64,000 nucleotides of DNA from a virus: positions 114,610-178,609 of IMG/VR virus record IMGVR_UViG_3300036766_000416. The stretch is one strand, 5' to 3'. Both the position numbers and the translations under genes were made by a program. This document shows positions 11,955 through 27,431 of this stretch, piece after piece; the first letter of the stretch is position 1, and each line of letters starts with the position of its first letter. The notes under the pieces are model-generated. The model was not told where the DNA came from. It made no database searches and was given only the letters and a program-made list of their open reading frames with translations.

Positions 11955-13178
11955 ATGAGCGCCAGAAGTGAAAGCCGTGAAAAGTTCCTAGCCCTGTTGA
12001 TTGCGACCGGAAAAGCGACCGTGACCACCAAGGAATTACTGGACCTGTGCGAAGCGAACGACCTCAAGGAACCTCAGTGGTTTACCAAGGACACCGCGAA
12101 CCGAGCGGGGCGTGGTCAGTTTCTCGTGCCGAATGGGGCTGTGCCAGTCTCATCGAAATTCAGTGCCCCTGCCCTCGAACCGAAAATTGTGGAAGAAGAA
12201 GTGGTGGCCTTTCAACCCCTCACGGGCAAACCGAAACCCCGGGTTATCTCCGTCGTGACCGACCTTGAGGACCAGGGTATTGTTCCCATCAAGTATAAAA
12301 ATTATGTACCCTTTGGCAACTTTGAGGACCTCAAGTCTATCATCGTTTCTCGCCAATTCTACCCTGTGTTCATCACGGGCCCTTCTGGTAATGGGAAGTC
12401 TATGTCCGTGGAGCAAGTTTGCGCCCTACTGGGGCGCGAGTATGTTTGCGTTTCCATGACCCCTGAGACCGATGAGGGTGACCTTCTCGGAAACTACATT
12501 CTTCTCGATAATCAGATGGTCTGGCGTGACGGTGCCGTGACAACGGCCGCTCGCCGTGGGGCTGTCTTGTGCATCGACGAGATTGACTACGGAGCCCAGA
12601 ACCTTTCGTGCCTCCAGAGAGTCTTGGAAGGGAAGCCATTCTTACTGAAAAAGAAGGGTGAGATTGTCACTCCGGCGCCTGGATTCCAGATTATTGCGAC
12701 CGCTAACACCAAAGGAAAAGGTTCTGAGGATGGTCGCTACATGTTCACCAACGTGCTCAACGAGGCCTTCCTTGAGCGATTTCCCATCACCTTCGAGCAA
12801 GAGTGGGCACCTCAGGTGGTTGAGCGGAAAATTATCAAGAAAGAACTGGAAGCCGCGGGTCGGGGCGATGATGAGTTTGCCAATCACCTCGTGATCTGGG
12901 CTTCTACAATTCGCAAAGCCTACGATGAGGAGGGTGCGTCAAGTGAAGTGATTTCCACTAGACGACTCGTTCACATTGCCAGAGCGTATCCGATCTTCGG
13001 TGGTGACAGACTCAAGGCAATTCGGTATTGTCTAAACCGCTTTGACGAAGAAACAAAAAAAAGTTTCATAGATTTATATTCAAAGGTCGATTCGAGCATA
13101 GTTATACAAAATACTATGGCAGGTGAAGGCACTCAAGACGGATCGGAGAATACAACACAAGAGCCTGTCACTGTCTAA
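11955..13178 (+). CDS. MoxR/CobS-like AAA+ ATPase of T4-like phages
   Basis: GPSGNGKS Walker A, LCIDEID Walker B, ATANTKG, LNEAFLERF, ISTRRL. Confidence 0.85.
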   Translation: MSARSESREKFLALLIATGKATVTTKELLDLCEANDLKEPQWFTKDTANRAGRGQFLVPNGAVPVSSKFSAPALEPKIVEEEVVAFQPLTGKPKPRVISVVTDLEDQGIVPIKYKNYVPFGNFEDLKSIIVSRQFYPVFITGPSGNGKSMSVEQVCALLGREYVCVSMTPETDEGDLLGNYILLDNQMVWRDGAVTTAARRGAVLCIDEIDYGAQNLSCLQRVLEGKPFLLKKKGEIVTPAPGFQIIATANTKGKGSEDGRYMFTNVLNEAFLERFPITFEQEWAPQVVERKIIKKELEAAGRGDDEFANHLVIWASTIRKAYDEEGASSEVISTRRLVHIARAYPIFGGDRLKAIRYCLNRFDEETKKSFIDLYSKVDSSIVIQNTMAGEGTQDGSENTTQEPVTV

Positions 13179-13249
13179 ACCGACAACGATCAAAATGCCA
13201 ACGGGTCATGGTATTACTACCACTGAGTATCTTGGTAGCGAAATAGTTC

Positions 13250-13278
13250 TTGACAATCCACCGAAATTATGTTATCAT
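13250..13278 (+). promoter_or_regulatory. sigma70-type promoter
   Basis: TTGACA, 17 nt, TG-extended TATCAT. Confidence 0.65.
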
Positions 13279-13364
13279 AGTCCTCAATCGTGCGAGGTTC
13301 TTTGTGAGCCAGCACAGGGAATGGGGCGACCTCTTTTTCGTCCCAATTATAGTGAGGTGTTCCT

Positions 13365-13661
13365 ATGAGTCATGTTTCAGCAAAGTCACGCATTCTCGCA
13401 TTCTTGTCCAAGACCACAGGGTACAACACCCTCAGCGTCAAGCAAGCTCGCGCCCGTTTTGGTATCCAGAACGTGTCTGCCCGCATCGCCCAGCTTCGGC
13501 AAGAAGGCTACTCAATCTACACCAATAAGTGCACCCACGGCGCCAAGGGTTATGAGTACCGCCTCGGCCGTCCTTCCAAATCATTCATCGCCAAGTGCGA
13601 AATGAATGGTGTGGTCGCCAAGGGTCCTGAAGCACTTCAGACAAACCAGAGCGCGTTCTAA
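13365..13661 (+). CDS. Small winged-HTH DNA-binding protein
   Basis: ILAFL..TLSVKQA...NVSARIAQLRQEGYSI..YRLG. Confidence 0.65.
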   Translation: MSHVSAKSRILAFLSKTTGYNTLSVKQARARFGIQNVSARIAQLRQEGYSIYTNKCTHGAKGYEYRLGRPSKSFIAKCEMNGVVAKGPEALQTNQSAF

Positions 13662-13687
13662 TTCCAGAACGTTTCGCTCTGCAATAC

Positions 13688-13720
13688 AGCGGAGGTCCTC
13701 TTTACGGGGTCCTCCGCTTT
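13688..13720 (+). terminator. Intrinsic terminator-like hairpin
   Basis: AGCGGAGG-T-CCTC/TTTAC/GGGG-T-CCTCCGCT followed by TT. Confidence 0.55.
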
Positions 13721-13740
13721 CGTCCGGTCTTGGAGGCACT

Positions 13741-14193
13741 GTGGATTATCGAAAATGGGACCTCAGGTTCATTGAACTCGCCAAACACGTTTCTCTGTGG
13801 AGCAAAGACCCAAGCACCCAAGTCGGTGCTGTCGTGGTCGATAGAAAGAACCGGGTACTCAGTCTAGGGTATAATGGGTTCCCTCGTGGGGTCAAGGATA
13901 CCGATGAACGACTCAACAACCGTGACGTCAAGTATTCCATAGTCGTCCATGCGGAAATCAATGCGCTGATCTTTGCCACACAACCCCTCGAAGATACCAC
14001 TCTCTACCTGTGGCCGTTTCTTTCGTGCTCTAGTTGCACCTCTATCATCATCAACGCAGGCGTCAAACGAGTCGTGGCCCCTGTAAGCCATAATCCCCGT
14101 TGGCTAGACTCCATCACCCTGAGCCAAACACTCTACCATGAAGCTGGTGTTCAGGTTGTGCTCATTCCCATGTTTGACAAGATGACTACATAA
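13741..14193 (+). CDS. cd: dCMP deaminase (GTG start 13741)
   Basis: SKDPSTQVGAV, GYNGFP, HAEINA, SCSSC zinc ligands; GGAGG RBS. Confidence 0.9.
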   Translation: MDYRKWDLRFIELAKHVSLWSKDPSTQVGAVVVDRKNRVLSLGYNGFPRGVKDTDERLNNRDVKYSIVVHAEINALIFATQPLEDTTLYLWPFLSCSSCTSIIINAGVKRVVAPVSHNPRWLDSITLSQTLYHEAGVQVVLIPMFDKMTT

Positions 14194-14224
14194 GAGTATG
14201 ACTTTATTATAGGGAGGGTTTGAA

Positions 14225-15019
14225 GTGGAAATAAAAATTGACATCGAAGTTCTACACAAGAACAAAATCTTCATCGCAACACCGATGTATGGTGGACAAT
14301 GCTGCGGTATGTATATGAAAAGTTGTCTGGACCTCCAGACCATTTTTCAGCAATACGGAATCCCCTCCAGGTTCTCCTTCATTTTCAACGAATCACTCAT
14401 CACCAGGGCCCGCAATTACCTCGTCGACGAATTTCTCAGAACCGACTTCACCCACCTCTTGTTTCTCGATGCTGACATTCACTTCAACCCTCAAGATATT
14501 ATTGCCATGCTCGCGCTGGACAAGGACGTGATCGGTGCCCCATACCCCAAAAAAGCCTTGAACTGGCACAACATCGCTAAGGCTGCTCGCAATCACCCAG
14601 AGCTTGACCCCAAGGAACTTGAGAACGTCGTGGGTGACTATGTGTTCAATGTGGTCAAGGGTACTGAAAAATTTCAGGTCTCGGAGCCTCTGGAGGTCAT
14701 GGAAATCGGTACAGGCTACATGCTCGTCAAGCGCGAGGTATTTGCGAAGTTTGCTGAGGCCTATCCGCAACTCAAATACCGGCCAGACCATGTTGGACAA
14801 AAAAACTTTGACGGCACTCGATACATACACGCATATTTTGATACAGTGATCGACCCACAGAGCGAACGGTACCTCTCAGAGGACTACATGTTCTGTCAGT
14901 GGTACCGCGCGATTGGTGGACACATCTGGTTGTGCCCATGGGTCCAGACGCAGCATGTAGGGACATACGCCTTCACCGGTAACATGGCGAAGATCGCCGA
15001 TCTCACAGGGAGTCTGTAA
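14225..15019 (+). CDS. GT-A fold glycosyltransferase-like protein common in T4-like phages
   Basis: IFIATPMYGG, ESLITRARN, LLFLDADI (DxD), YLSEDYMFC. Confidence 0.7.
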   Translation: MEIKIDIEVLHKNKIFIATPMYGGQCCGMYMKSCLDLQTIFQQYGIPSRFSFIFNESLITRARNYLVDEFLRTDFTHLLFLDADIHFNPQDIIAMLALDKDVIGAPYPKKALNWHNIAKAARNHPELDPKELENVVGDYVFNVVKGTEKFQVSEPLEVMEIGTGYMLVKREVFAKFAEAYPQLKYRPDHVGQKNFDGTRYIHAYFDTVIDPQSERYLSEDYMFCQWYRAIGGHIWLCPWVQTQHVGTYAFTGNMAKIADLTGSL

Positions 15020-15020
15020 C

Positions 15021-15425
15021 ATGAGATTCTTCACATACCTTCTCGGTGGTCTCTTACTGGGCCTCATTCTCGCACTCGTGGTCACCACATTTGCATCGGA
15101 AACTATCCAAGTGTGTACCGCAACAGACGGTAGCATAACATACACCAACAAGAACCAACGGGGTTGCTCCGCGGTGACACTACCAGAACTCTCGGTCATC
15201 CCCACACGAAACATTCCTGTGGTTCCTCTCTCCCCCCAAGTGTCGGTCACTGAGGAGAAGGCTCCGTCAGTCAACGATGGTATCTGTGCGCTCTATGAGG
15301 AATGGATGACCCTCGCGTCAAGAACACTAGGTGGCTTCGCACACAACACCATTCAAGATACCCAACGTCGTCTGGTACTCGTTCAATTATTTGGTGGTGG
15401 GTTTGCTCCAAATTCATGTCACTGA
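15021..15425 (+). CDS. Secreted or membrane-anchored small protein (DUF4124-like)
   Basis: Hydrophobic signal, then IQVCTATDGSITYTN..C. Confidence 0.45.
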   Translation: MRFFTYLLGGLLLGLILALVVTTFASETIQVCTATDGSITYTNKNQRGCSAVTLPELSVIPTRNIPVVPLSPQVSVTEEKAPSVNDGICALYEEWMTLASRTLGGFAHNTIQDTQRRLVLVQLFGGGFAPNSCH

Positions 15426-15434
15426 AAGGTTCTC

Positions 15435-15884
15435 GTGATCCATAAACACCACATAATTCCTGTTCATGCGGGAGGGTCAGATGATCTCTCGAATATCAAG
15501 GAAGTAACCATTGCGGAACATGCAGAAGAACATCGGTTGCTCTGGAAACAATACGGTCGATACCAGGATTGGTGTGCGTGGAAGGGATTATCTGCTAAAA
15601 TAGGGCGAGAAGAGATTTATAGTATCATAGCAAAAATAAATGGGAGACTTGGGGGTCTGTCGCTAAAAGGAAAACCAAAATCAGAGGAACACAAGAAAAA
15701 GATTTTATCCCTCAAACAAGCATTTAGAAAAGGTGATGCCCCTTGGAACAAAGGAAAAACTTCGAATCAAGAAACCAGAGATAAAATATCAAGGTCTTTA
15801 ACAGGCAAGAAACAATCACAGAAAACCATTCAAAAGAGAGCAACATCAAATAGTCATCCGAGAGGAAAATACAAAAAAGGATAA
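15435..15884 (+). CDS. Free-standing HNH homing endonuclease
   Basis: HKHHIIP..GGSDD.SN...EHAEEH; NUMOD3 repeats (KSEEHKKKI, PWNKGK). Confidence 0.8.
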   Translation: MIHKHHIIPVHAGGSDDLSNIKEVTIAEHAEEHRLLWKQYGRYQDWCAWKGLSAKIGREEIYSIIAKINGRLGGLSLKGKPKSEEHKKKILSLKQAFRKGDAPWNKGKTSNQETRDKISRSLTGKKQSQKTIQKRATSNSHPRGKYKKG

Positions 15885-15898
15885 AGGGAGATTATATC

Positions 15899-16519
15899 AT
15901 GTTCATTGGTTTGGTTGGGTTTATAGGGTCGGGCAAAGGAAGTGTCGGTGACATTCTCAGCAATGATTTTGGGTACACTCAGGATTCCTTTGCGAAGCCT
16001 CTCAAAGACGCAGTGACGGCCATCTTTGGATGGGACCGACAGAAGCTTGAAGGTAACACACACGAGTCTCGACAGTGGCGCGAACAACCCTGTGAGTTCT
16101 GGTCCAAACAATTCGGGTACCCCTTTACACCGAGACTGGCTCTACAACTCATGGGTACCGAAGCAGGGCGCAACGTGTTTCACCCAGACCTCTGGGTCAT
16201 CTCATTGCTCAATCGTAGCCAAGGCAAAAACGTTGTGGTCACCGACGTCCGATTCAAGAACGAGGTTGCTGCAGTCCACAACGCAGGTGGCTTGGTGATT
16301 CGAGTGCGCCGAGGCCTCGAACCATTGTGGTACAAGACTGCGCTGCTCGCAAACGGTGGCGACAAAGAAGCCATCAACACAATGGAGAAATCTGGTGTCC
16401 ACCAAAGCGAACATGATTGGATCGGCTCCCACGTTGACGTGACCATCGACAATGACGGTACTCTTGCAGACCTTCGAGAAAAAATAACCGGGGTGCTCTT
16501 GACAACCGGCACGAAGTAG
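15899..16519 (+). CDS. 1: Deoxynucleoside monophosphate kinase (gp1-like)
   Basis: GFIGSGKG, SFAKPLKD, RLALQLMGTE, VTDVRFKNE. Confidence 0.9.
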   Translation: MFIGLVGFIGSGKGSVGDILSNDFGYTQDSFAKPLKDAVTAIFGWDRQKLEGNTHESRQWREQPCEFWSKQFGYPFTPRLALQLMGTEAGRNVFHPDLWVISLLNRSQGKNVVVTDVRFKNEVAAVHNAGGLVIRVRRGLEPLWYKTALLANGGDKEAINTMEKSGVHQSEHDWIGSHVDVTIDNDGTLADLREKITGVLLTTGTK

Positions 16520-16527
16520 TGTATAAT
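16499..16527 (+). promoter_or_regulatory. sigma70 consensus promoter upstream of gp45
   Basis: Perfect TTGACA-17-TATAAT. Confidence 0.8.
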
Positions 16528-16571
16528 CAATTCAGTCGTCACCATGTTACATCATTCACCTGTGAGGCTTT

Positions 16572-17252
16572 ATGAAACTTAGCGAAAACACCGTCAACGT
16601 GCTCAGGAATTTCTCCACCATCAATACCGCTCTCTGGTTCAAAGGTGGTAATGTTTTGCGAACCATCAGCCCGTTCAAAACGGTACTTGCGGAAGCCGTG
16701 ATCGACGAAACGATATCCTCGGACTTTGGGGTGTACGACTTGCATCAACTTCTCAGTATCCTCTCACTGTACCAGGATACCCCAGAGGTCACGGTAGATG
16801 GCAACAACCTCGTGATCCAAGGTCACGGTGGTCGTAGCAAGATCACCTATCGCTGCTGCGATTCCACGATGATCAAGACACCACCCGACAAGGAAATCAA
16901 GCTTCCCTCAGAAGACCTGTCGTTCCTACTGACAGAAACAGACCTTGAGTGGGTCATGAAGTCTGCCAGTGTGCTCGCCAATCCCCATATCGCCGTCGTA
17001 GGTGACGGGAGCAAGCTGGTGCTGCGAACCTTGGATGCCTCCAACGACTCAGCACACACTGATACCCTGGACATTGGACCCCATACGGGAACCCCCGTCA
17101 AATTCGTGTTCAAGACCGAAAACTGGAAGTTCCTACGTGGGACCTATGCAGTGACCGCCTCGAACAAGAGTGCCACGACCGGGGTAGCCAAGTTCCAGAA
17201 TCAAGCTCGCAAGATCGTCTACTTCGTAGCAATTGAAGGACAGACCAAGTAA
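16572..17252 (+). CDS. 45: Sliding clamp gp45
   Basis: MKLSENTVNVLRNFSTIN, FGVYDL..LLS, YFVAIE; synteny 45-44-62-regA. Confidence 0.92.
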   Translation: MKLSENTVNVLRNFSTINTALWFKGGNVLRTISPFKTVLAEAVIDETISSDFGVYDLHQLLSILSLYQDTPEVTVDGNNLVIQGHGGRSKITYRCCDSTMIKTPPDKEIKLPSEDLSFLLTETDLEWVMKSASVLANPHIAVVGDGSKLVLRTLDASNDSAHTDTLDIGPHTGTPVKFVFKTENWKFLRGTYAVTASNKSATTGVAKFQNQARKIVYFVAIEGQTK

Positions 17253-17282
17253 CCCCGGCATAGTAGGAGTCCTATCACCGAT

Positions 17283-17327
17283 AAACCGCCCTCCTGAGCC
17301 CTTTCTGGCCCCTGTGGGGGTGGTTTT
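17283..17327 (+). terminator. Possible terminator hairpin after gp45
   Basis: AAACCGCCCTC pairs with GGGGGTGGTTT, then a T run. Confidence 0.4.
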
Positions 17328-17354
17328 GTCACATAGAAACAAGAGGATAGACAA

Positions 17355-18299
17355 TTGGAACCCAATCTTAGACATGCCCTGTGGACCGAACGCTATCGAC
17401 CCCTCACCGTTGAGGACTGTATTCTGCCGGACCGACTCAAGGTTCCGTTCAGGGAATACGTCAAGACCAAGACTATCCCGAACCTGTTGCTAGCGGGCAC
17501 CGCAGGTGTTGGCAAGACTACTATCGCCAAGGCGCTCTGCAACGAAATCGGGTGCGATTATCTAGTCATCAACGGTAGTGATGAATCGGGCATCGACACG
17601 TTTAGAACCAAAATAAAAAACTATGCGTCCTCACTGTCGATGACCGGAGGTCGCAAAGTCATCATCATCGATGAAAGTGATTACCTGAATCCCAACTCTA
17701 CTCAACCAGCGTTGCGTGGTGCCATGGAAGAATTTGCAGGTAACTGTTCGTTTATCTTCACAGCCAACCACAAAAACCGACTCATCGAACCACTGCACTC
17801 TCGGTGTGCCGTTGTGGAGTTTACCCTCAAGGGCACCGAGAAACAAAAGATGGCTGCGGCATTCTTCACCAGGGTCCAAGCGATTCTCAAAACTGAAACC
17901 ATTGAATATGACCAGAAAGTTCTTGCGGAACTGGTCACTAAGTATTTTCCAGATTTTCGACGGGTTTTGAATGAATTACAACGATACTCAAAGTTCGGCA
18001 AGATCGATGTTGGTATCCTGAGCCATATCGGTGACGTAGACATCACAGAGGTTGTTGGGTACCTCAAGGTCAAGGATTTTGGTTCACTGAGAAAATGGGT
18101 GGGGAGTCATACCATAGAACCGACGGTGTTATTCAGGAAAATTTATGATGGTATGTATGAAATCCTGAAGCCAGAATCTATACCTCAGGTGGTTTTGCTC
18201 CTAGCAGATTATGGGTATAAATCAGCCTTCGTGGTCGACCAGGAGATAAATACAATGGCATGTTTAGTCGAATTGATACTACAGTGTGAGTTCGTATAG
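17355..18299 (+). CDS. 44: Clamp loader large subunit gp44
   Basis: LWTERYRP, GTAGVGKTT, IIDESD, PLHSRC. Confidence 0.95.
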   Translation: MEPNLRHALWTERYRPLTVEDCILPDRLKVPFREYVKTKTIPNLLLAGTAGVGKTTIAKALCNEIGCDYLVINGSDESGIDTFRTKIKNYASSLSMTGGRKVIIIDESDYLNPNSTQPALRGAMEEFAGNCSFIFTANHKNRLIEPLHSRCAVVEFTLKGTEKQKMAAAFFTRVQAILKTETIEYDQKVLAELVTKYFPDFRRVLNELQRYSKFGKIDVGILSHIGDVDITEVVGYLKVKDFGSLRKWVGSHTIEPTVLFRKIYDGMYEILKPESIPQVVLLLADYGYKSAFVVDQEINTMACLVELILQCEFV

Positions 18300-18823
18300 T
18301 GAAACATCATATTATCCCCCTTCATGAATGGAAGAAAAGGTTCAATCCAAAGGCTACAAGGGCTGATAAAGAATTGAACGCTCCCGACAATGTTGTTGTT
18401 CTCACAATAGAGCAACATGCTCAGGTTCACCAATTCCTGTATGAGCAATATGGTAGGTGGGAAGATAGGCTGGCTTGGAAGGGGCTGACTGGTGGAATTG
18501 GTACAGAAAGTATTCTCGCTGAGAAGCAGCGTTTGAACGGTAGCAGATCGGGACTACTCATAAAAGGAATTCCGAAATCACAAGATCATAAAAATGCCCT
18601 AAAAAGTGCTTCCAGAAAAAGATGGGATTCGGAACAAGGTAAAAAAGAAATAGATAAAATGGCTCGCAATTATAAAGTGATTTGTCCATCTGGTTTGGTT
18701 ATGGTAATACGAAATCTCACACAATTCTGCAGAGAGCACAATCTTCCAATTCAAAACATGACTCATGTAGCCAAAGGTAAGAGAAAACATTGTAAGCACT
18801 ATTGGTGTGAGGAAATCGGATGA
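18299..18823 (+). CDS. Free-standing HNH endonuclease inserted between genes 44 and 62
   Basis: KHHIIPLH..DN...QHAQVH; C-terminal NL..FCREHNL..M..V..G; overlaps both neighbours. Confidence 0.8.
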   Translation: MKHHIIPLHEWKKRFNPKATRADKELNAPDNVVVLTIEQHAQVHQFLYEQYGRWEDRLAWKGLTGGIGTESILAEKQRLNGSRSGLLIKGIPKSQDHKNALKSASRKRWDSEQGKKEIDKMARNYKVICPSGLVMVIRNLTQFCREHNLPIQNMTHVAKGKRKHCKHYWCEEIG

Positions 18824-19221
18824 CACCCTTTGACTTTGTTCGTCAAATCAATACCGGTAAACAAGACCTGATGACCGATGACTTGTCGGAGAAGGAATAT
18901 GTCCCGTTCGTCGTGAATCGTACCTTGTCCTATGAAATGGACAGTCTGATGCAGGCCAACGAAATGAACACGCGGGCCCATTGTGACAAGAAACTCCAAT
19001 ATCACTACCTCCTGGGCACCGTCCGGTCCCGCAAGCGACCGTTTCACAAGTGGTTCAAAGCGGCCAGCGACGACGTGATCGATGATATCAAGCTATTCTA
19101 TGGGTATTCGGACAAGAGAGCCTATGAGGCACTTGAGTTGCTTACACCCGAACAACTCCAAGAAATCAGCGAAAAAACTGATCCCGGCGGCCGCGCTGGA
19201 CACAGGAAGCAGAAAGTATAA
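18820..19221 (+). CDS. 62: Clamp loader small subunit gp62
   Basis: TPFDF..IN, YVPFVVNRTLSY, QYHYLL, RKRPFHKW, YGYS..RA. Confidence 0.9.
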   Translation: MTPFDFVRQINTGKQDLMTDDLSEKEYVPFVVNRTLSYEMDSLMQANEMNTRAHCDKKLQYHYLLGTVRSRKRPFHKWFKAASDDVIDDIKLFYGYSDKRAYEALELLTPEQLQEISEKTDPGGRAGHRKQKV

Positions 19222-19224
19222 ATA
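19217..19224 (+). promoter_or_regulatory. T4 late promoter box
   Basis: Exact TATAAATA upstream of regA. Confidence 0.55.
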
Positions 19225-19268
19225 GCCATGCGATATGTCACCACTATGAGAGAAAGCGAGTTGAACGC

Positions 19269-19688
19269 ATGGAAGACATTTTCAATGGCGTCGGGGTCGA
19301 GATTGCCCTCACGACACCAGAGGATTTTCTCAAAATCCGTGAAACCCTATCCAGGATCGGCGTCTCGTCACGCAAAGAGAAGATTCTCTACCAGTCATGC
19401 CACATCCTCCACAAACGCGGTCGCTACGTTGTGCTCCATTTCAAAGAACTATTCCTTCTTGACGGCAAACCCACAGACATTACCGAAAACGACCTTGCAC
19501 GGCGCAATGCGATTGCAGGACTCCTGGCTGAATGGAAACTCTGCAGTATCCTCCACCCAGGGACCTTGGGCGCGTCAGCACCGTTGGCACAGATCAAGAT
19601 CATCGCACATAAAGAGAAAGCAGATTGGACGCTCGTGACCAAGTATACCATGGGTAGGAAAACGCTACCAACCACACAAAGCATATAA
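19269..19688 (+). CDS. regA: Translational repressor RegA
   Basis: DFLKIRETLSRIG, LYQSCHILHKRGRY..HFKELF.LDGK. Confidence 0.95.
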   Translation: MEDIFNGVGVEIALTTPEDFLKIRETLSRIGVSSRKEKILYQSCHILHKRGRYVVLHFKELFLLDGKPTDITENDLARRNAIAGLLAEWKLCSILHPGTLGASAPLAQIKIIAHKEKADWTLVTKYTMGRKTLPTTQSI

Positions 19689-19733
19689 GTTCATTTAATA
19701 CAAGTTCGCTCTATATCACATAAACAGTTTCGG

Positions 19734-20133
19734 GTGACGGATAGACCTCACTAAGTTTTCTAAAGGTCCTATAGAGGATCAAGAGTGGCATTAACAAGCC
19801 ACATGGTGCTGATGGACTGGTCGAACGGTCCCAGTGCTTGCGACCTTCAGTTCGCTCGTCAAAGGGAGTCAAGCGGTTCCTCCCCTTTCTTCTTCGGAAG
19901 TTGAGTCGTTCGACATGCCCACGGCATTCCTCGCTGCCTCAGCATAGTTTTGCCCGAAAACCTTAACTTCAAACCCACCGATGAAGCGTAGCACGAGCCG
20001 TAGGCGAGTGGATGAAGAACTTCCGAAGATGACCTTATGAAACCTCAAGTTCGGAAATGCTTTTGGGCGCTTGGAATAGTCTTGTTCATTTCGGATTAGA
20101 CGTCGAGGTCGCAAGGTCACGTTAGGAAACGTG
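19734..20133. ncRNA. Candidate structured non-coding RNA (family unknown)
   Basis: About 470 nt gap with at least six consecutive hairpins, a C(UUCG)G loop and a 10 bp long-range inverted repeat. Confidence 0.3.
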
Positions 20134-20167
20134 TAGGGATAACTCAATTTTTATTATAAAGGTTATT

Positions 20168-20464
20168 ATGTCAATGCACTACTCAATAAAACCTGGTTGC
20201 CATTACTCCAAATACTCATCAGAATCCGCTTGGTACGCATTCTACCATGATGACACCTACTCAAGTGGCTCAGGTCCATCCAAGACTTCTCAAAAATTGG
20301 CGCTGTGGCACAACAACCTCTGCACGGATTGGCCCTACCTCGGTCTCAAAGGTATGAGGCCTGAGGATATTCAGAACCACTATAAGTGTTCTGATATAGA
20401 ACTCGCTTCTGCCCTATGTTTCATTGAACGATTTTATCGAGATGTTGAAAAGAGATTTGTATGA
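20168..20464 (+). CDS. Hypothetical protein (C-terminus vaguely DUF433-like)
   Basis: ORF with RBS; GMRPEDIQNHY..SDIELASAL. Confidence 0.5.
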   Translation: MSMHYSIKPGCHYSKYSSESAWYAFYHDDTYSSGSGPSKTSQKLALWHNNLCTDWPYLGLKGMRPEDIQNHYKCSDIELASALCFIERFYRDVEKRFV

Positions 20465-21959: not shown

Positions 21960-22297
21960 ACATCATGGGGGATATCAAGTTAATTGTGCTCAACAATGGG
22001 CTTCAAATTATGGGTGAGATCGTGAGTACCGACGCAGGTGACGCATCGATCCATAGCCAAGGTAAAGTTCTGGTTGTCAATCCGGTCAGTGTGGTAATGG
22101 TACCTAACAAGACCCCTGGTCAACATCAGGCGCAGATTGGTTTCGGATCGTTTCTGGAGTATGTCGAAGAATACAAAACTGGTATCCCACTGCATGTGAC
22201 CGACATCCTGACAGTGGTCACACCGGTACAGGATTTGCTCAATCACTACAAGACCCTGTTCTCTGGTCTCGTGCTACCTCCTGGGATTAACGGTTGA
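21956..22297 (+). CDS. Conserved T4-like hypothetical protein upstream of gp43
   Basis: IKLIVLNNGLQIMGEI..NPV..LLNHYK.LFSGLVLP pattern and position. Confidence 0.6.
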   Translation: MNIMGDIKLIVLNNGLQIMGEIVSTDAGDASIHSQGKVLVVNPVSVVMVPNKTPGQHQAQIGFGSFLEYVEEYKTGIPLHVTDILTVVTPVQDLLNHYKTLFSGLVLPPGING

Positions 22298-22322
22298 CAA
22301 TTCTCAGTGAATGTGTTATCAT
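22294..22322 (+). promoter_or_regulatory. sigma70-type promoter of gene 43A
   Basis: TTGACA, 17 nt, TG-extended TATCAT; ATG 5 nt downstream. Confidence 0.7.
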
Positions 22323-22327
22323 AGTCC

Positions 22328-23851
22328 ATGTCCAAGCCTTTCTACACCAATGTCTCGGTGAGCGGAAACCACGTCTACTATCGTGGTATCGAAAACGGTC
22401 GTCGGGTGCAGCGGAAACTCTCCTATGCCCCGACGCTCTTTGTGCCTTCAAAGACCCCCAACACCACAGTCACCTGGAAAGACCTGCAAGGTAACCCTGT
22501 TGAACCAATGAAGTTCACGTCGATCTACGACGCCAAAGATTTCATCAAACGGTACAAGGACGTTAAAGGGTTCACGATCTACGGACAGCAAAACTTTGCG
22601 ACGGCTTTCATTGCAGAACAGCACCCCGAAGAAATTATGGAATGGGACCTTGCCCATGTGGTGACCGCGTACATCGATATCGAAGTCGATACTGAGTACC
22701 GAATGCCAGACGTCGATACCTGCCTGAATCCCATCACTGCTGTCACTATCAAATTTTCCAACGACCCCCAGTATCATGTGTTTGGCTGCAATCAGTATAC
22801 CCCTCACCGTCCCGATATCACCTGGTATCAGTGTGTCGATGAGTGTAACCTTGTAACCCGCTTTATGTCACTGTGGCGCGACAGAGCCCCTGATATCATT
22901 ACTGGGTGGAGTGTCAAGACCTTCGATATTCCCTACCTCGTCGGACGTATCATCATGTTGTTAGGTGAGGATCAAGCTCAGTGGTTGTCACCATGGGGGA
23001 AGGTGAACCGTCGTGAAGAAAAATCAAAGTTCGGGAAACCAATTACTACGTACCAACTTTTGGGTATTTCCACTCTTGACTATTTTCAACTCTACAACAA
23101 GTATGCCCCCAAGTCGAACCAAGAATCCTACAAGTTAGACTACATCGCTCATGTGGAATTGGGTGAACGCAAAGTCAACTATGAAGAACATGAAACACTT
23201 CACAACCTTTATCGAGACAATTTTCAAAAATTTATTGAGTATAACATTCATGACGTCGAGTTAGTGGAAATGCTCAATGCCAAGGGACGCCTTGTTGATA
23301 TGGCTGTCTTGCTTGCCTACGACAACAAGACGAACTATGAAGATGCGTTTTTTCAGGTACGTATGTGGGATGCGATCACCTACAATCACCTGAACCGAAA
23401 GTATATTGTGATACCTCCCAAAAAGGGAGAGGAAAAAGACGAAGCGTATGAGGGTGCGTATGTCAAGGACCCACAGACAGGTCTCTTTGAGTGGTTGATG
23501 AGTCTGGACTTGGATAGCTTGTACCCCCATTTGATTATGCAATATAACTTGTCACCCGAAACATTGATCGACCCCAAGAACTATACACCTGCTATGAAAG
23601 CGGTGTTGGAACAGGGGGTATCCGTAAACGCTTTGCTCCAGCAAAAGATCACCCTTGATGGTCTTGAAGGGTGTACGCTGACCCCCAATGGACAATTTTT
23701 TGATACCACTCGGGTTGGATTTCTTTCTGAGATTATGGATACCATGTATGCCGCTAGGGTACACTACAAAAATAAGCAACTCGAATTAGAACTAGAACTT
23801 GAGGAGATTAAGGGGGAAATGATGCGGCGAGGAACTAACTTTCCTAAATAG
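22328..23851 (+). CDS. 43A: Family B DNA polymerase, N-terminal subunit (gp43A: exonuclease, motif A, first fingers helix)
   Basis: YIDIEV (ExoI), GWSVKTFDIPY (ExoII), YNIHDV (ExoIII), YEGAYV, SLDLDSLYP (motif A); stops in the fingers region. Confidence 0.93.
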   Translation: MSKPFYTNVSVSGNHVYYRGIENGRRVQRKLSYAPTLFVPSKTPNTTVTWKDLQGNPVEPMKFTSIYDAKDFIKRYKDVKGFTIYGQQNFATAFIAEQHPEEIMEWDLAHVVTAYIDIEVDTEYRMPDVDTCLNPITAVTIKFSNDPQYHVFGCNQYTPHRPDITWYQCVDECNLVTRFMSLWRDRAPDIITGWSVKTFDIPYLVGRIIMLLGEDQAQWLSPWGKVNRREEKSKFGKPITTYQLLGISTLDYFQLYNKYAPKSNQESYKLDYIAHVELGERKVNYEEHETLHNLYRDNFQKFIEYNIHDVELVEMLNAKGRLVDMAVLLAYDNKTNYEDAFFQVRMWDAITYNHLNRKYIVIPPKKGEEKDEAYEGAYVKDPQTGLFEWLMSLDLDSLYPHLIMQYNLSPETLIDPKNYTPAMKAVLEQGVSVNALLQQKITLDGLEGCTLTPNGQFFDTTRVGFLSEIMDTMYAARVHYKNKQLELELELEEIKGEMMRRGTNFPK

Positions 23852-23867
23852 TGCGTTGGGAAGGGAG
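23839..23867 (+). promoter_or_regulatory. Late-promoter core plus RBS-sequestering hairpin of the HEG
   Basis: TAAATA at 23845-23850; CTTTCCTAA (23839-47) can pair with TTGGGAAGG (23856-64), overlapping the AAGGGAG RBS. Confidence 0.45.
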
Positions 23868-23875
23868 AATTTCAT

Positions 23876-24580
23876 ATGTATTATTTGATTTATAAGACGG
23901 TTAACCGTCATAATGGAAAGTATTATATTGGTTCCCACGAGACCTGTAACCCATACGATTCTTATTTGGGGTCGGGTACAATACTTAGGCGTGCAATAAA
24001 GAAATATGGTAAGAGAAATTTTACAAAATTCATTATAGAGTTCTGCGACACTAGAGATATAATGTATGAGCGGGAAAGGGAATTGGTAGAAGTTGCCAGG
24101 AAAGATGAAAGAAGTTATAATGTAAATGTGGGAGGTTCTGGTGGATGGAATTTTGTGAATGAAAGTGGAACGAATCTAGGTTTGGGCAACCCCATGCATC
24201 AACAAAATGCAAAGAAAGCGGTGTCCGTTGCGATAAAATCTAATTGGGCAAAAAATCGCCCAAAGTATTTGAAAATTTCTTTGGATAATCTTTCTAAAGC
24301 CAACAATGTTGGCGTCATAAGAAGCGCATACACTCGTAAACTTATATCAGAAAACAATAGAAAAATGTGGAATAATCCTGTAATTCGAGAGAAAATTTTG
24401 TATGCTAATCGCACAAAATTTGAAATATTATCTCCTGGTGGAGAGATTTTTCATACTGACCAATTGGAAAAATTTTGCATCGACCGAGGCCTAACTTACG
24501 TATCAATATGGGACACTATTCGTCGTAAAAGGCCAGTGAAGAAAGGTCGATCAAAGGGGTGGATGTGCAAAAAGATTTAA
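23876..24580 (+). CDS. GIY-YIG (Seg-like) homing endonuclease between 43A and 43B
   Basis: LIYKTVNRHNGKYYIGSH, YLGSG, YERE, YNVNVGGSGG, C-terminal FC..GL....KGW.C. Confidence 0.88.
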   Translation: MYYLIYKTVNRHNGKYYIGSHETCNPYDSYLGSGTILRRAIKKYGKRNFTKFIIEFCDTRDIMYERERELVEVARKDERSYNVNVGGSGGWNFVNESGTNLGLGNPMHQQNAKKAVSVAIKSNWAKNRPKYLKISLDNLSKANNVGVIRSAYTRKLISENNRKMWNNPVIREKILYANRTKFEILSPGGEIFHTDQLEKFCIDRGLTYVSIWDTIRRKRPVKKGRSKGWMCKKI

Positions 24581-24705
24581 CTTCTATATCAGATAAGGAA
24601 CTCCAGCGCCTTCGTAAGGAGAAAGAGTTTGAAATTTCACGCTATAGGAATCTCCAATTAGCGAAGAAAGTAGGACTCAACTCTGCTTACGGGGCGCTGG
24701 GTTAG
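24565..24705 (+). CDS. 43B: DNA polymerase gp43B, first 46 codons (second fingers helix and motif B); missed by the ORF track
   Basis: AAGGGG RBS, then GTG: MQKDLTSISDKELQRLRKEKEFEISRYRNLQLAKKVGLNSAYGALG, then TAG. Confidence 0.85.
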   Translation: MQKDLTSISDKELQRLRKEKEFEISRYRNLQLAKKVGLNSAYGALG

Positions 24706-25730
24706 GTTCTGAATACTTCAGGTTCTTTGATATCCGTATTGCCGAGGGTGTCACACTAGCAGGTCAGTTGGGTATCCGCTGGATTGGAAACAGACTGAAT
24801 GGGTTCCTCAATACCCTTTTGAAAACTACCGAGGTGGACTATGTGATTGCCAGTGATACGGACTCGGTATACCTACATCTCGCACCGCTAGTGTGTCGTG
24901 TGTTTAAGGACACCACAGATACCCAAAAAGTCATTGACTTTCTTGATAAAGTGTTCAAGGAAAAAATCAAAGGTTTCATCGAAATGAACTATACGGAGCT
25001 TGCTAAATACACCCATGCGTATGCCCAGAAGATGCGTATGAAGCGTGAATCTCTGGCGAACAAAGGCATCTGGACAGCCAAGAAACGCTATATCCTGAAC
25101 GTGTGGGATTCAGAGGGTGTTCGGTATAAAAAACCCAAGATGGTCATTCACGGTCTGGAGGCGATCAAATCTTCGACACCTGGCGCCTGCCGAGAGAAGA
25201 TCAAAGAGGCATTGACGATCATCATGAATGGTACCGAAAATGAACTCATCGAACATATTGAAAAATTTCGTGTGTCATTCAAGACCCTCCCCATTGCTGA
25301 CATCGCATTCCCTCGTGGTATGAATGACCTAGAAAAATGTGACAGTGATGAATGCAATGATTCAACCAGTGCGTTGTCGTTCGATGATTCGTCAACAGCC
25401 GACCGACAAATTTATGAAAACCGTACACCCATCCACGTCAAGGGTGCGCTCGTGTATAATAGGTTTTTGAAACAAATGAAACTTGATACGCAATATGAAA
25501 CCCTGCGTTCGGGTGAAAAACTGAAATTTGTGTACCTCAAGGAACCCAATATTTTTCGAGAATCAGTTATGTCGTTCCTGGTGCGCGTACCCAAAGAATT
25601 CCACCTGGAAACCTGTGTGGACTATGACCTCATGTTCACCAAGGCCTTCCTTGATCCCCTCAATATTGTCTTGAAATGTATTGGGTGGTCAGCCGAGAAG
25701 AAATCTACACTAGATGATTTTTTTGGATAG
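24705..25730 (+). CDS. 43B: DNA polymerase gp43B, remainder (palm motif C and thumb), in a different frame
   Basis: GSEYFRFFDIRIAEGVTLAGQ continues motif B; ASDTDSVY (motif C); KKRYILNV; C-terminal clamp-binding STLDDFFG. Confidence 0.9.
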   Translation, partial: GSEYFRFFDIRIAEGVTLAGQLGIRWIGNRLNGFLNTLLKTTEVDYVIASDTDSVYLHLAPLVCRVFKDTTDTQKVIDFLDKVFKEKIKGFIEMNYTELAKYTHAYAQKMRMKRESLANKGIWTAKKRYILNVWDSEGVRYKKPKMVIHGLEAIKSSTPGACREKIKEALTIIMNGTENELIEHIEKFRVSFKTLPIADIAFPRGMNDLEKCDSDECNDSTSALSFDDSSTADRQIYENRTPIHVKGALVYNRFLKQMKLDTQYETLRSGEKLKFVYLKEPNIFRESVMSFLVRVPKEFHLETCVDYDLMFTKAFLDPLNIVLKCIGWSAEKKSTLDDFFG

Positions 25731-25781
25731 CAGCTTCTTTAGTTTGTCATAATGATCTATTTAGCAACGGAGGTTCTTCTC

Positions 25782-26018
25782 ATGACTCCTGTAAAGGATG
25801 GTTTCAAAATTGTCGATATGCCCAAACTGGACTATAAGGGTAGGGTACTCTGTAACCGCTGTGGTATCGAGTGTGACAGTGACCAGTTACTCTACGCGAG
25901 ACCTCTCGAAGGTTTCAAGAGCAAGTACCTATCCTGGTACTGCCCGACCTGGAATTGCCATGGTCACCTGAGTAGTGGAGTTTATTTTCTGTCAACTTCG
26001 ACTCTCACCGAGGGTTGA
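25782..26018 (+). CDS. Small Cys-containing hypothetical protein (possible zinc ribbon)
   Basis: GGAGG RBS; CNRC and C..WNC. Confidence 0.5.
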   Translation: MTPVKDGFKIVDMPKLDYKGRVLCNRCGIECDSDQLLYARPLEGFKSKYLSWYCPTWNCHGHLSSGVYFLSTSTLTEG

Positions 26019-26043
26019 CTTTACTCATCAACTGTGCTATAAT
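26015..26043 (+). promoter_or_regulatory. sigma70-type promoter
   Basis: TTGACT, 17 nt, TG-extended TATAAT. Confidence 0.7.
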
Positions 26044-26054
26044 CGAAAGGATCA

Positions 26055-26408
26055 ATGATGAAATTCACATACGAAGAAATTGCGGAAATCTGTCACGAGA
26101 ATAACCGAGCGTATTGCCATGCGTTTGGCGACTACTCGCAACCAGCATGGAAGTATGTGCCCCAAGAAATCAAGGATTCGATTGTCAACGGTGTCGAATT
26201 TCACCTGGCGAATCCTGATGCCAGCCCCGAAGCATCGCACAAGCAATGGGTCAAAATCAAGCTAGAAAATAAGTGGAAGGTGGGTCCTGTTAAGGACGTG
26301 AAGAAAAAAGAGCATCCAAACTTGAGACCCTACAGCGAATTGTCAGACGTAGAGCGCGGAAAGGACATTATTTTCTCCGCGTTGGTTAATACTCTCAAAG
26401 GAATCTAG
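26055..26408 (+). CDS. RyR-domain protein
   Basis: IAEICHE, SHKQW...KW..GPVKD..KKEHPNLRPYSEL...KD. Confidence 0.75.
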   Translation: MMKFTYEEIAEICHENNRAYCHAFGDYSQPAWKYVPQEIKDSIVNGVEFHLANPDASPEASHKQWVKIKLENKWKVGPVKDVKKKEHPNLRPYSELSDVERGKDIIFSALVNTLKGI

Positions 26409-26411
26409 AAT

Positions 26412-27431
26412 ATGAGCTTGATGGATCGAATCAAAAAAACCAGCAGCATAGAAATCGCTAGTGTCCTTGACGAATCAGAGGTATTCGGTGAGCGCCAACT
26501 CATTCTCACCGAGGTTCCAGTCATCAACATCGCCCTCTCCGGTACCCTAAAGGGTGGTTTGACTTCGGGTGTCACAGAGATTGCTGGACCCTCCAAACAT
26601 TTCAAAACGGGTATTGCGTTGCTCTTGATGCGAGCATTCCTCAAGCAGTACCAAGATGGCGCAATTTTATTTTATGATGCCGAGTTTGGTACCCCAGGTT
26701 CCTACTTCCAGACCTTCGGGATCGACATGAAGAAGGTCTTCCACACCCCCATCACCGACGTCGAACAACTCAAGCAAGACATCATGAAACAGTTGGTTGA
26801 GATGAAACGCGGAGACCACCTGATGATCGTCATTGACTCTATCGGACAATTGGCCTCACTCAAAGAAGTGGAAGATACCCTTGAAGGTAAGTCGGTGGCC
26901 GACATGACAAGGGCAAAGGCGATCAAGTCGTTGTTTCGTATGATCACCCCACACCTGAGAATCAAGGATATCCCATTGGTTGTGGTGAATCACACCTACA
27001 TGGAAATTGGTATGTTCCCTAAGGCTATCGCAAGTGGTGGTACGGGTATGACGTATGCTGCCGATACCATCTGGATTGTGGGTCGCCAACAGGAAAAGGT
27101 AGACAACGCGGTCGCTGGATTCAACTTCATTATCAATGTGGAGAAATCACGATTCGTGAAAGAGAAATCAAAGTTGCCCATCTCCGTGTCATTCGAGAAG
27201 GGTATCGAACAGTATTCTGGTCTCCTAGAGATTGCTCTAGAGGGTGGGTTCGTGCTCAAGCCATTGCCTGGATGGTACGCGAAGCCGGGTGCCAAGACCA
27301 AGGTGCGCGAGGTAGACACCAAGACCGAAGAGTTTTGGAAGGACATTCTAGCCAATGAGGAATTTGATGCGTATATTCGAAAGCGTTTTGAAATGGCTTA
27401 CGGCCAAATTTTGGGGAGTGACAACACCTAA
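26412..27431 (+). CDS. uvsX: UvsX RecA-like recombinase
   Basis: AGPSKHFKT, FYDAEFG, IDSIGQLAS, VNHTY, EKSRFV. Confidence 0.95.
   Translation: MSLMDRIKKTSSIEIASVLDESEVFGERQLILTEVPVINIALSGTLKGGLTSGVTEIAGPSKHFKTGIALLLMRAFLKQYQDGAILFYDAEFGTPGSYFQTFGIDMKKVFHTPITDVEQLKQDIMKQLVEMKRGDHLMIVIDSIGQLASLKEVEDTLEGKSVADMTRAKAIKSLFRMITPHLRIKDIPLVVVNHTYMEIGMFPKAIASGGTGMTYAADTIWIVGRQQEKVDNAVAGFNFIINVEKSRFVKEKSKLPISVSFEKGIEQYSGLLEIALEGGFVLKPLPGWYAKPGAKTKVREVDTKTEEFWKDILANEEFDAYIRKRFEMAYGQILGSDNT

Follow-up and report, generated by a model that had tools for sequence, protein, structure and literature searches.

The window studied here, i.e., the whole stretch of DNA under analysis, comprises the final 64 kb of the complete 178.6-kb record of an uncultured T4-like phage, and a sediment metagenome is the sole run that we found to contain its DNA. 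The complete genome has only one gp43, and this gene is split (Table 1). It starts with gp43A, whose last ~18 residues (from about 23795) form an element-derived C-terminal extension, the identity to the unsplit gene of a relative (L001) ending near 23798. Then come a free-standing GIY-YIG homing endonuclease gene and gp43B, which is itself divided into two reading frames: ORF1 joins an element-derived N-terminal extension to the fingers helix with motif B, starting at a GTG that overlaps the end of the endonuclease gene (most relatives have ATG at that position), and ORF2 is 84–89% identical to the unsplit L001 and L002.

Table 1. Features of the split gp43 locus (positions in the window) and the evidence for each.
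Feature	Position	Strand	Evidence
gp43A, N-terminal part of T4-like family B DNA polymerase, 507 aa	22328..23851	+	PF03104/PF00136, phrog_262/2062
Degenerate copy of the uninterrupted gp43 site, putative operator	23851..23876	+	profile match
Free-standing GIY-YIG homing endonuclease, 234 aa	23876..24580	+	phrog_314 and others
gp43B ORF1, 46 codons then TAG	24565..24705	+	phrog_1918 positions 10-54
Internal Shine-Dalgarno-like motif TAAGGA	24594..24599	+	anti-SD pairing
~100-nt RNA stem-loop, basal stem 24603-24618 with 24686-24701	24601..24701	+	folding z, covariation
Proposed take-off codon GGT (Gly46)	24700..24702	+	sequence
5-nt coding gap, TAG (24703-05) overlapping proposed landing codon GGT (24705-24707)	24703..24707	+	sequence, insert family
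gp43B ORF2: palm, thumb, clamp-binding tail; resumes at Ser	24708..25730	+	phrog_262 positions 528-852

An earlier note, made from the letters of this stretch, had drawn attention to the junction between the two frames of gp43B, and its reading of the site proved correct: a GGT is followed by TAG and by a second GGT, and the expected continuation, GSEYF, sits in another frame. When 5 nt are deleted, the spacing becomes that of the solved T4 and RB69 enzymes and of all 80 uninterrupted relatives that a search with the C-terminal part of the polymerase yielded. The first in-frame start codon of ORF2 is a TTG at 24768, with none earlier, and a restart there would indeed cost about 20 conserved residues when compared with T4/RB69 gp43, as the note had argued.

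The rest of the genome provides some context. No second frame break was found in a comparison with 1,027 proteins, mostly of the replication region. Free-standing HNH-like and GIY-YIG-like ORFs are unusually numerous between core genes genome-wide (for example at 18299–18823 of the window). A large tRNA cluster, in which many members have low ARAGORN scores, occupies positions 12285–20201 of G000; it includes a tRNA-Gly(GCC) at 18488–18562 and, directly after it, a probable tRNA-Gly(UCC), which could provide the tRNA for the hop discussed below.

Short stop-first inserts in gp43B

The earlier note had proposed looking for the insert in relatives and for its co-occurrence with the endonuclease, and both are found well beyond the window: 61 loci, making up 32 lineages (<90% identity) of T4-like gp43B, carry an insert of 4–11 nt at this site, most of them with the same GIY-YIG family. 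Counted by lineage, the gap measures 4 (2 lineages), 5 (9), 6 (4), 8 (4), 9 (6), 10 (5), or 11 nt (2), which covers all three frames. Every insert opens with a stop codon, be it TAG (19 lineages), TGA (7), or TAA (6). A search with TRR placed directly after the codons of motif B, a pattern that permits TGG, returned 44 viral loci, all of them gp43B with a short insert, and TGG occupied the first insert position in none of the 44. With patterns that did not require a stop, or that left both the stop and the Gly landing codon free, the true gp43 matches were again all stop-first (in metagenomes, 21 of 21). Chance matches outside gp43 made up about half of what the gap patterns gave and were discarded; a nuclease-anchored search added further insert loci.

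The two ends of the gap are matched as well. In 30 of the 32 lineages, the take-off codon and the last codon of the insert agree in their amino acid (Gly in 28, Ala in 1, Leu in 1), and the landing codon is, also in 30 of 32, the first downstream triplet that shares the first two bases of the take-off codon. One lineage (L247) has Ala at both positions; another (L233) has Leu at both, with the take-off one codon earlier. Half of the pairs differ in the third base, several being GGU/GGA, so relaxed re-pairing would be needed. One has to keep in mind that the landing codon is usually the host gene's own and that its match with the take-off codon is thus partly inherited. Two lineages with the 4-nt gap TAGC have no Gly landing codon; L086, L090, and L115 are of this class, which may rely on a mismatched landing on a Ser codon or on a +1 shift.

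All inserts sit within split 43B genes, 44–48 codons from the likely start. The earlier note had remarked that take-off at codon 46 recalls T4 gene 60; ORF1 counted from its GTG does end at Gly46, but codons 44–48 are common to the whole family because the split point is common, and the match is therefore not evidence of homology.

Could the insert be an assembly error or a dead allele? A single run contains this DNA, possibly the source sample, and our view of it is at contig level: a Logan contig with a length of 162,948 nt and a word depth of 15.3, belonging to the run that may be the source sample of the window, shows no difference over 22000–27000 and no alternative allele, and the exact 26-nt junction, searched in viral contigs, has no match beyond its own genome. 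The same type of insert nevertheless occurs in 32 non-redundant lineages and hence is not an assembly error; its 61 loci come from many samples and present 24 distinct take-off/gap versions, with intact flanking frames and a covarying RNA structure. We thus regard an artefact, which the earlier note had asked to be excluded first, as ruled out at family level and as extremely improbable in the window itself, where this contig agrees base for base.

None of the matches inspected was a cultured phage with the hop; S-N03 has a split gp43, with no homing endonuclease, insert, or long hairpin. GTDB genomes gave one true match, a 2.5-kb contig binned with Melainabacteria, which is too weak to assign a host. 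The literature searched, a coverage that leaves out most subscription journals, gave no description of the gp43 element.

RNA signals and the decoding of gp43B

In the window, the 140 nt 5′ of the stop fold with a z of −4.8 relative to shuffles, and the stem-loop within them reaches −4.8 to −6.8. A stem-loop of ~100 nt that closes on the take-off codon is present in 28 of 28 distinct insert loci (z from −3.4 to −10.4) and is formed by five further ones; 50 uninterrupted genes used as a control average +0.14 and do not have it, and the long stem is also absent from split genes without an insert. In the basal 16 pairs, 93.8% of the cells of the alignment are paired, with 57 double changes, a count inflated by relatedness among the loci; none of 500 shuffles and no slid register is comparable. 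Where motif B changes synonymously, the 5′ arm follows, with changes in the amino acids that it encodes; in L233, the lineage with an earlier take-off codon, the stem moves one codon along with it.

The second signal is a Shine-Dalgarno-like (SD) motif lying 4–5 nt 5′ of the stem; a start codon at the usual distance from it is missing. Its pairing with the anti-SD averages −8.3 kcal/mol in 27 insert lineages versus −0.5 in 35 controls. The Glu codon at this position is GAG in 20 of 27 lineages and never GAA, while the GAA:GAG ratio downstream is 337:173; where Lys or Gly replaces Glu, the purine run is preserved. Hairpin and SD were found together in every insert locus tested, and the SD is missing from the unsplit and insert-less split genes tested, with the exception of L242. 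Once the hairpin has formed, about 9 unpaired bases separate the SD and the landing codon where the gap is of the common 5-nt class. We tried to see in this distance a strict ruler and rejected the idea, as the spacing varies across the family and L125 has both the longest gap and a more distant SD. In the window, the internal SD (24594–24601) can also pair with 24722–24729, enclosing the gap in a larger structure.

Downstream of the gap, a hairpin at 24708–22, which the earlier note had compared with that of gene 60, can form as described; its z of about −1.2 is no better than shuffles, and it is not conserved in relatives, so we discarded it as a family signal. No conserved structure was found within or 3′ of the gap across the insert family. 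What is conserved is the long 5′ stem-loop and the internal SD; the downstream hairpin is incidental.

Stop-first inserts in 32 lineages, a conserved hairpin, and the usual presence of a nuclease gene make it most likely that ribosomes hop over the gap. We consider it very probable that full-length 43B is made by a programmed ribosomal stop-hop that came with a mobile cassette linked to a homing endonuclease: the stop always directly follows the take-off codon, gap lengths fall in all frames, take-off and landing codons covary (Gly, Ala, Leu), the cassette is mobile, and its endonuclease gene is preceded by an operator-like copy of the target. The earlier note's proposal of an endonuclease-linked insert skipped by a matched-codon hop is thus strongly supported by the comparison, from which we infer the hop itself. 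The ribosome would read 46 codons and stall when its A site reaches UAG, with Gly-tRNA sitting on GGU; the peptidyl-tRNA would then release the take-off codon, and the ~100-nt stem-loop, zipping behind the ribosome, would absorb this codon and pull the mRNA forward. Since the stem absorbs the take-off codon, forward movement should be favoured over backward movement, as proposed for the 5′ stem-loop of gene 60. The tRNA would re-pair at the next GGN, 5 nt on in the window, and decoding would restart at UCU. The internal SD, carried close to the landing site as the hairpin folds, probably aids landing and could act as the mini-SD of gene 60 does.

Three other ways of producing the polymerase have to be weighed against the hop. 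The 4–11 nt could be cut from the mRNA and the ends religated, by a micro-intron, a trans-acting ribozyme, or a nuclease plus ligase, with the hairpin as a guide. The hairpin does stop exactly at the 5′ edge of the gap, the 4-nt class would be explained cleanly too, and a true group I intron is present near this site in Aeromonas phage 25; an ORF of 393 aa at 22881–24062 of G000, whose N-terminus may be RtcB-like, would also fit. RNA-level removal gives no reason, however, for any of the three stops, and never TGG, to stand at the first position, it leaves the amino-acid covariation of take-off and landing unexplained, and it finds no conserved structure at the 3′ boundary. The genome has no group I intron (no RF00028 match in it or in the window), and 5 nt is too short for a catalytic core. 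We know of no precedent for the removal of such short gaps from RNA and hold this explanation to be very unlikely.

Ordinary frameshifting or readthrough would add 1–3 residues after motif B, by a −1 shift for the 5- and 8-nt gaps, a +1 shift for the 4-nt gaps, and readthrough for the 6- and 9-nt gaps. The window permits a −1 slip from GGU to GGG, which would add two residues, and the 4-nt class fits a +1 shift adding one Ser. Yet three mechanisms would need one common set of signals, and several gaps include a second stop; the base 5′ of the take-off codon varies, and −1 re-pairing is therefore not conserved; finally, the spacing after motif B is invariant in the 80 relatives and in T4/RB69. 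We give this reading as little credit as RNA-level removal.

The polymerase could also be made in three pieces, with ORF1 terminating and ORF2 initiated separately through the SD delivered by the hairpin. This SD is stronger than that of the 43B start, and gp43 already tolerates one split. Against it, the aligned lineages lack an in-frame ATG, GTG, or TTG close to the junction, the TTG start of the window would drop the conserved residues mentioned above, and covarying take-off and landing codons would remain without explanation; a three-piece polymerase is, to us, less credible still than shifting frames. Excision, a mixture of frameshifts, and separate initiation are each insufficient because gaps that open with any of the stops, three frames, and amino-acid-matched ends occur in combination.

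Returning to the hop, we somewhat favour the broader proposal of a widespread natural family of efficient, minimal (4–11 nt) programmed stop-hops with signals wholly 5′ of the gap. If this is true, a long hairpin swallows the take-off codon and moves a remote Shine-Dalgarno up to the landing site, phage homing endonucleases use a hop, rather than introns or inteins, to occupy a catalytic motif, and bacteria have a second, mechanistically distinct bypass design, in the form of a compact, portable recoding module.

The cassette and its nuclease

A mobile cassette of about 0.9 kb that splits gp43 at the fingers tip around the GIY-YIG gene is the best explanation of the locus. Its parts are the C-terminal extension of 43A, the operator-like site, the GIY-YIG gene, the new N-terminus of 43B, and the short stop-containing gap; compared with L001, the DNA between about 23799 and 24647 is foreign, and homology then resumes for a stretch before the gap is reached. 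The cassette, which would have homed into gp43, has a patchy distribution on the tree of the host gene and is absent from the relatives that are 84–89% identical. In a quick tree of the C-terminal part of 43B, used for placement and for counts of changes, the 43B of the window nests among unsplit genes (support 99, 97, and 96), and the insert label changes 8 times, 6 of them forced by well-supported branches, gains and losses not being told apart.

In most insert loci, the same GIY-YIG family ends about 125 nt before the take-off codon; the other loci have another nuclease, a remnant, or none. Its members at the equivalent position are 32–44% identical, with conserved motif residues, and the N-terminal part of the window enzyme is 35% identical to seg43 of Aeromonas phage 25. 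Several arrangements depart from that of the window. The cassette also occurs in genes whose 43A lies several kb away or past a small gene (L082, L102, L107, and L110), and L060 has the layout of L110 without nuclease, gap, or hairpin. In L097, an unrelated nuclease-like ORF (Vsr-like by eye), from about 914 to 134 nt before take-off, replaces the GIY-YIG gene, and gap and hairpin are kept. L269 and L280 are divergent polymerases with a GIY-YIG gene downstream of motif B.

Directly before the endonuclease start lies a degenerate copy of the uninterrupted site (Ala-Leu-Gly-x-x-Tyr/Phe-Phe codons). A profile of this target matches (p<0.01) 17 of 27 leaders of cassette endonucleases, including that of the window, versus 0 of 39 leaders of unrelated GIY-YIG genes, and in relatives the copy often overlaps, or is built around, a TATAAATA late promoter. 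Leaders with the copy include those of L083, L098, L136, L236, L228, and L231. We regard it as a putative autorepression operator of the I-TevI type, which suggests a nuclease that spans the insertion point when bound; alternatively, the copy is a relic of the insertion.

The gap itself likely protects the gene from the nuclease by altering its target, and probably persists for this reason. Of the nuclease-bearing lineages collected in an unbiased way, 13 carry the gap and 7 lack it; of these 7, 4 have changed the Ala codon of motif B to Ser, 1 is otherwise divergent, and 2 (L241 and L246) keep the site unaltered. Since four of the seven gap-less lineages have the Ser codon but two keep the site unaltered, we call protection likely and go no further; the survival of the right half of the target after the insert also counts against it. 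The Ala-to-Ser change, seen in 0 of the 80 relatives selected by polymerase similarity, is a possible second route to self-immunity. Five loci (L228, L231, L232, L242, and L243) have the cassette nuclease, neither gap nor hairpin, and a changed site at the Ala codon.

Comparison with known systems

In bacteria, T4 gene 60 and its topoisomerase homologues are the only established examples of programmed bypassing, to which one supported case, in a Streptomyces phage, can be added. Short natural stop-hops have long been expected, yet a 2016 review knew of no natural hop over an in-frame stop (PMC5009743). The gp43 family offers 32 natural variants, which differ in gap length, stop codon, tRNA, and hairpin, and in which the proposed 5′ stem-loop “motor” and a landing assisted by an SD could be probed with no take-off hairpin as a complication. 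It also implies that many broken-looking gp43 genes in metagenomes are probably functional.

Like the synthetic stop-hops and the byps of Magnusiomyces mitochondria (PMC5009743), the proposed hop has matched codons around a stop or unused codon, and relaxed third-position pairing is seen in byps too; unlike it, synthetic stop-hops are unprogrammed and byps are mitochondrial and 27–55 nt long. The 10-nt bypass that Streptomyces phage Hau3 has in its terminase gene (PMC10732093) resembles it in its short gap, proposed 5′ stem-loop, and flanking SD, and differs in being triggered by a hungry UUA codon, in its supposed regulatory role, in the lack of a homing endonuclease, and in its few cases.

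For the cassette, the closest likeness is gene 43 of Aeromonas phage 25 (DQ529280; PMC2988022, PMC2993671), which is split at the same point with a related GIY-YIG gene between 43A and 43B; seg43 of this phage is 38% identical over its full length to the endonuclease of L088. The insert of phage 25 is a self-splicing group IA2 intron of about 330 nt, unlike the 5 nt without ribozyme of the window, and this intron (25.g43B) interrupts a Leu codon at 5 nt from the hop site, on its upstream side. We considered that the gaps might descend from the intron; the 5 nt between the two sites and the resemblance of the 9-nt gaps to a stop plus the host's own two codons speak against it. Bypass inserts and a group I intron would be alternatives at one nuclease target, which bears on the origin of such inserts. 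The putative operator resembles that of I-TevI (PMC2988022), i.e., a degenerate copy of the homing site overlapping a late promoter before a GIY-YIG gene; such operators are known from intron-encoded enzymes, unlike the free-standing one of the gp43 cassette.

In T4, the insert of gene 60 is thought to block self-cleavage by MobA, and the nuclease of this element can be exchanged or disappear with the bypass retained (Manning and Atkins, bioRxiv 10.1101/2022.08.31.505936); the gene 60-type cases described there are all in the topoisomerase gene, and the word “polymerase” is not mentioned. As in gene 60/MobA, a mobile endonuclease cassette divides an essential gene and supplies it with C- and N-terminal extensions, take-off is at about codon 46 with matched codons and an adjacent stop, and a 5′ stem-loop, longer and far better conserved in gp43, stands behind the take-off codon. 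The nuclease is GIY-YIG and the host gene gp43, unlike the HNH enzyme MobA and the large subunit of the topoisomerase. Gene 60 has a gap of 20–50 nt, a take-off hairpin, which is absent from the gp43 element, and, within the gap, a mini-SD 5–7 nt before landing; in gp43, the gap is 4–11 nt and unstructured, and the SD lies outside it, about 105 nt upstream. As a guide to a nascent-peptide stimulator of the gene 60 kind, the conservation of ORF1 is confounded by the RNA structure and by the function of the polymerase. From these features, the gp43 element appears to work like the MobA/gene 60 design, yet it is not a member of it, because of its other host gene, the lack of a take-off hairpin, a far shorter gap, and conserved signals on the 5′ side only; its stop-hop is most likely a miniature counterpart of the rare T4 gene 60 bypass.
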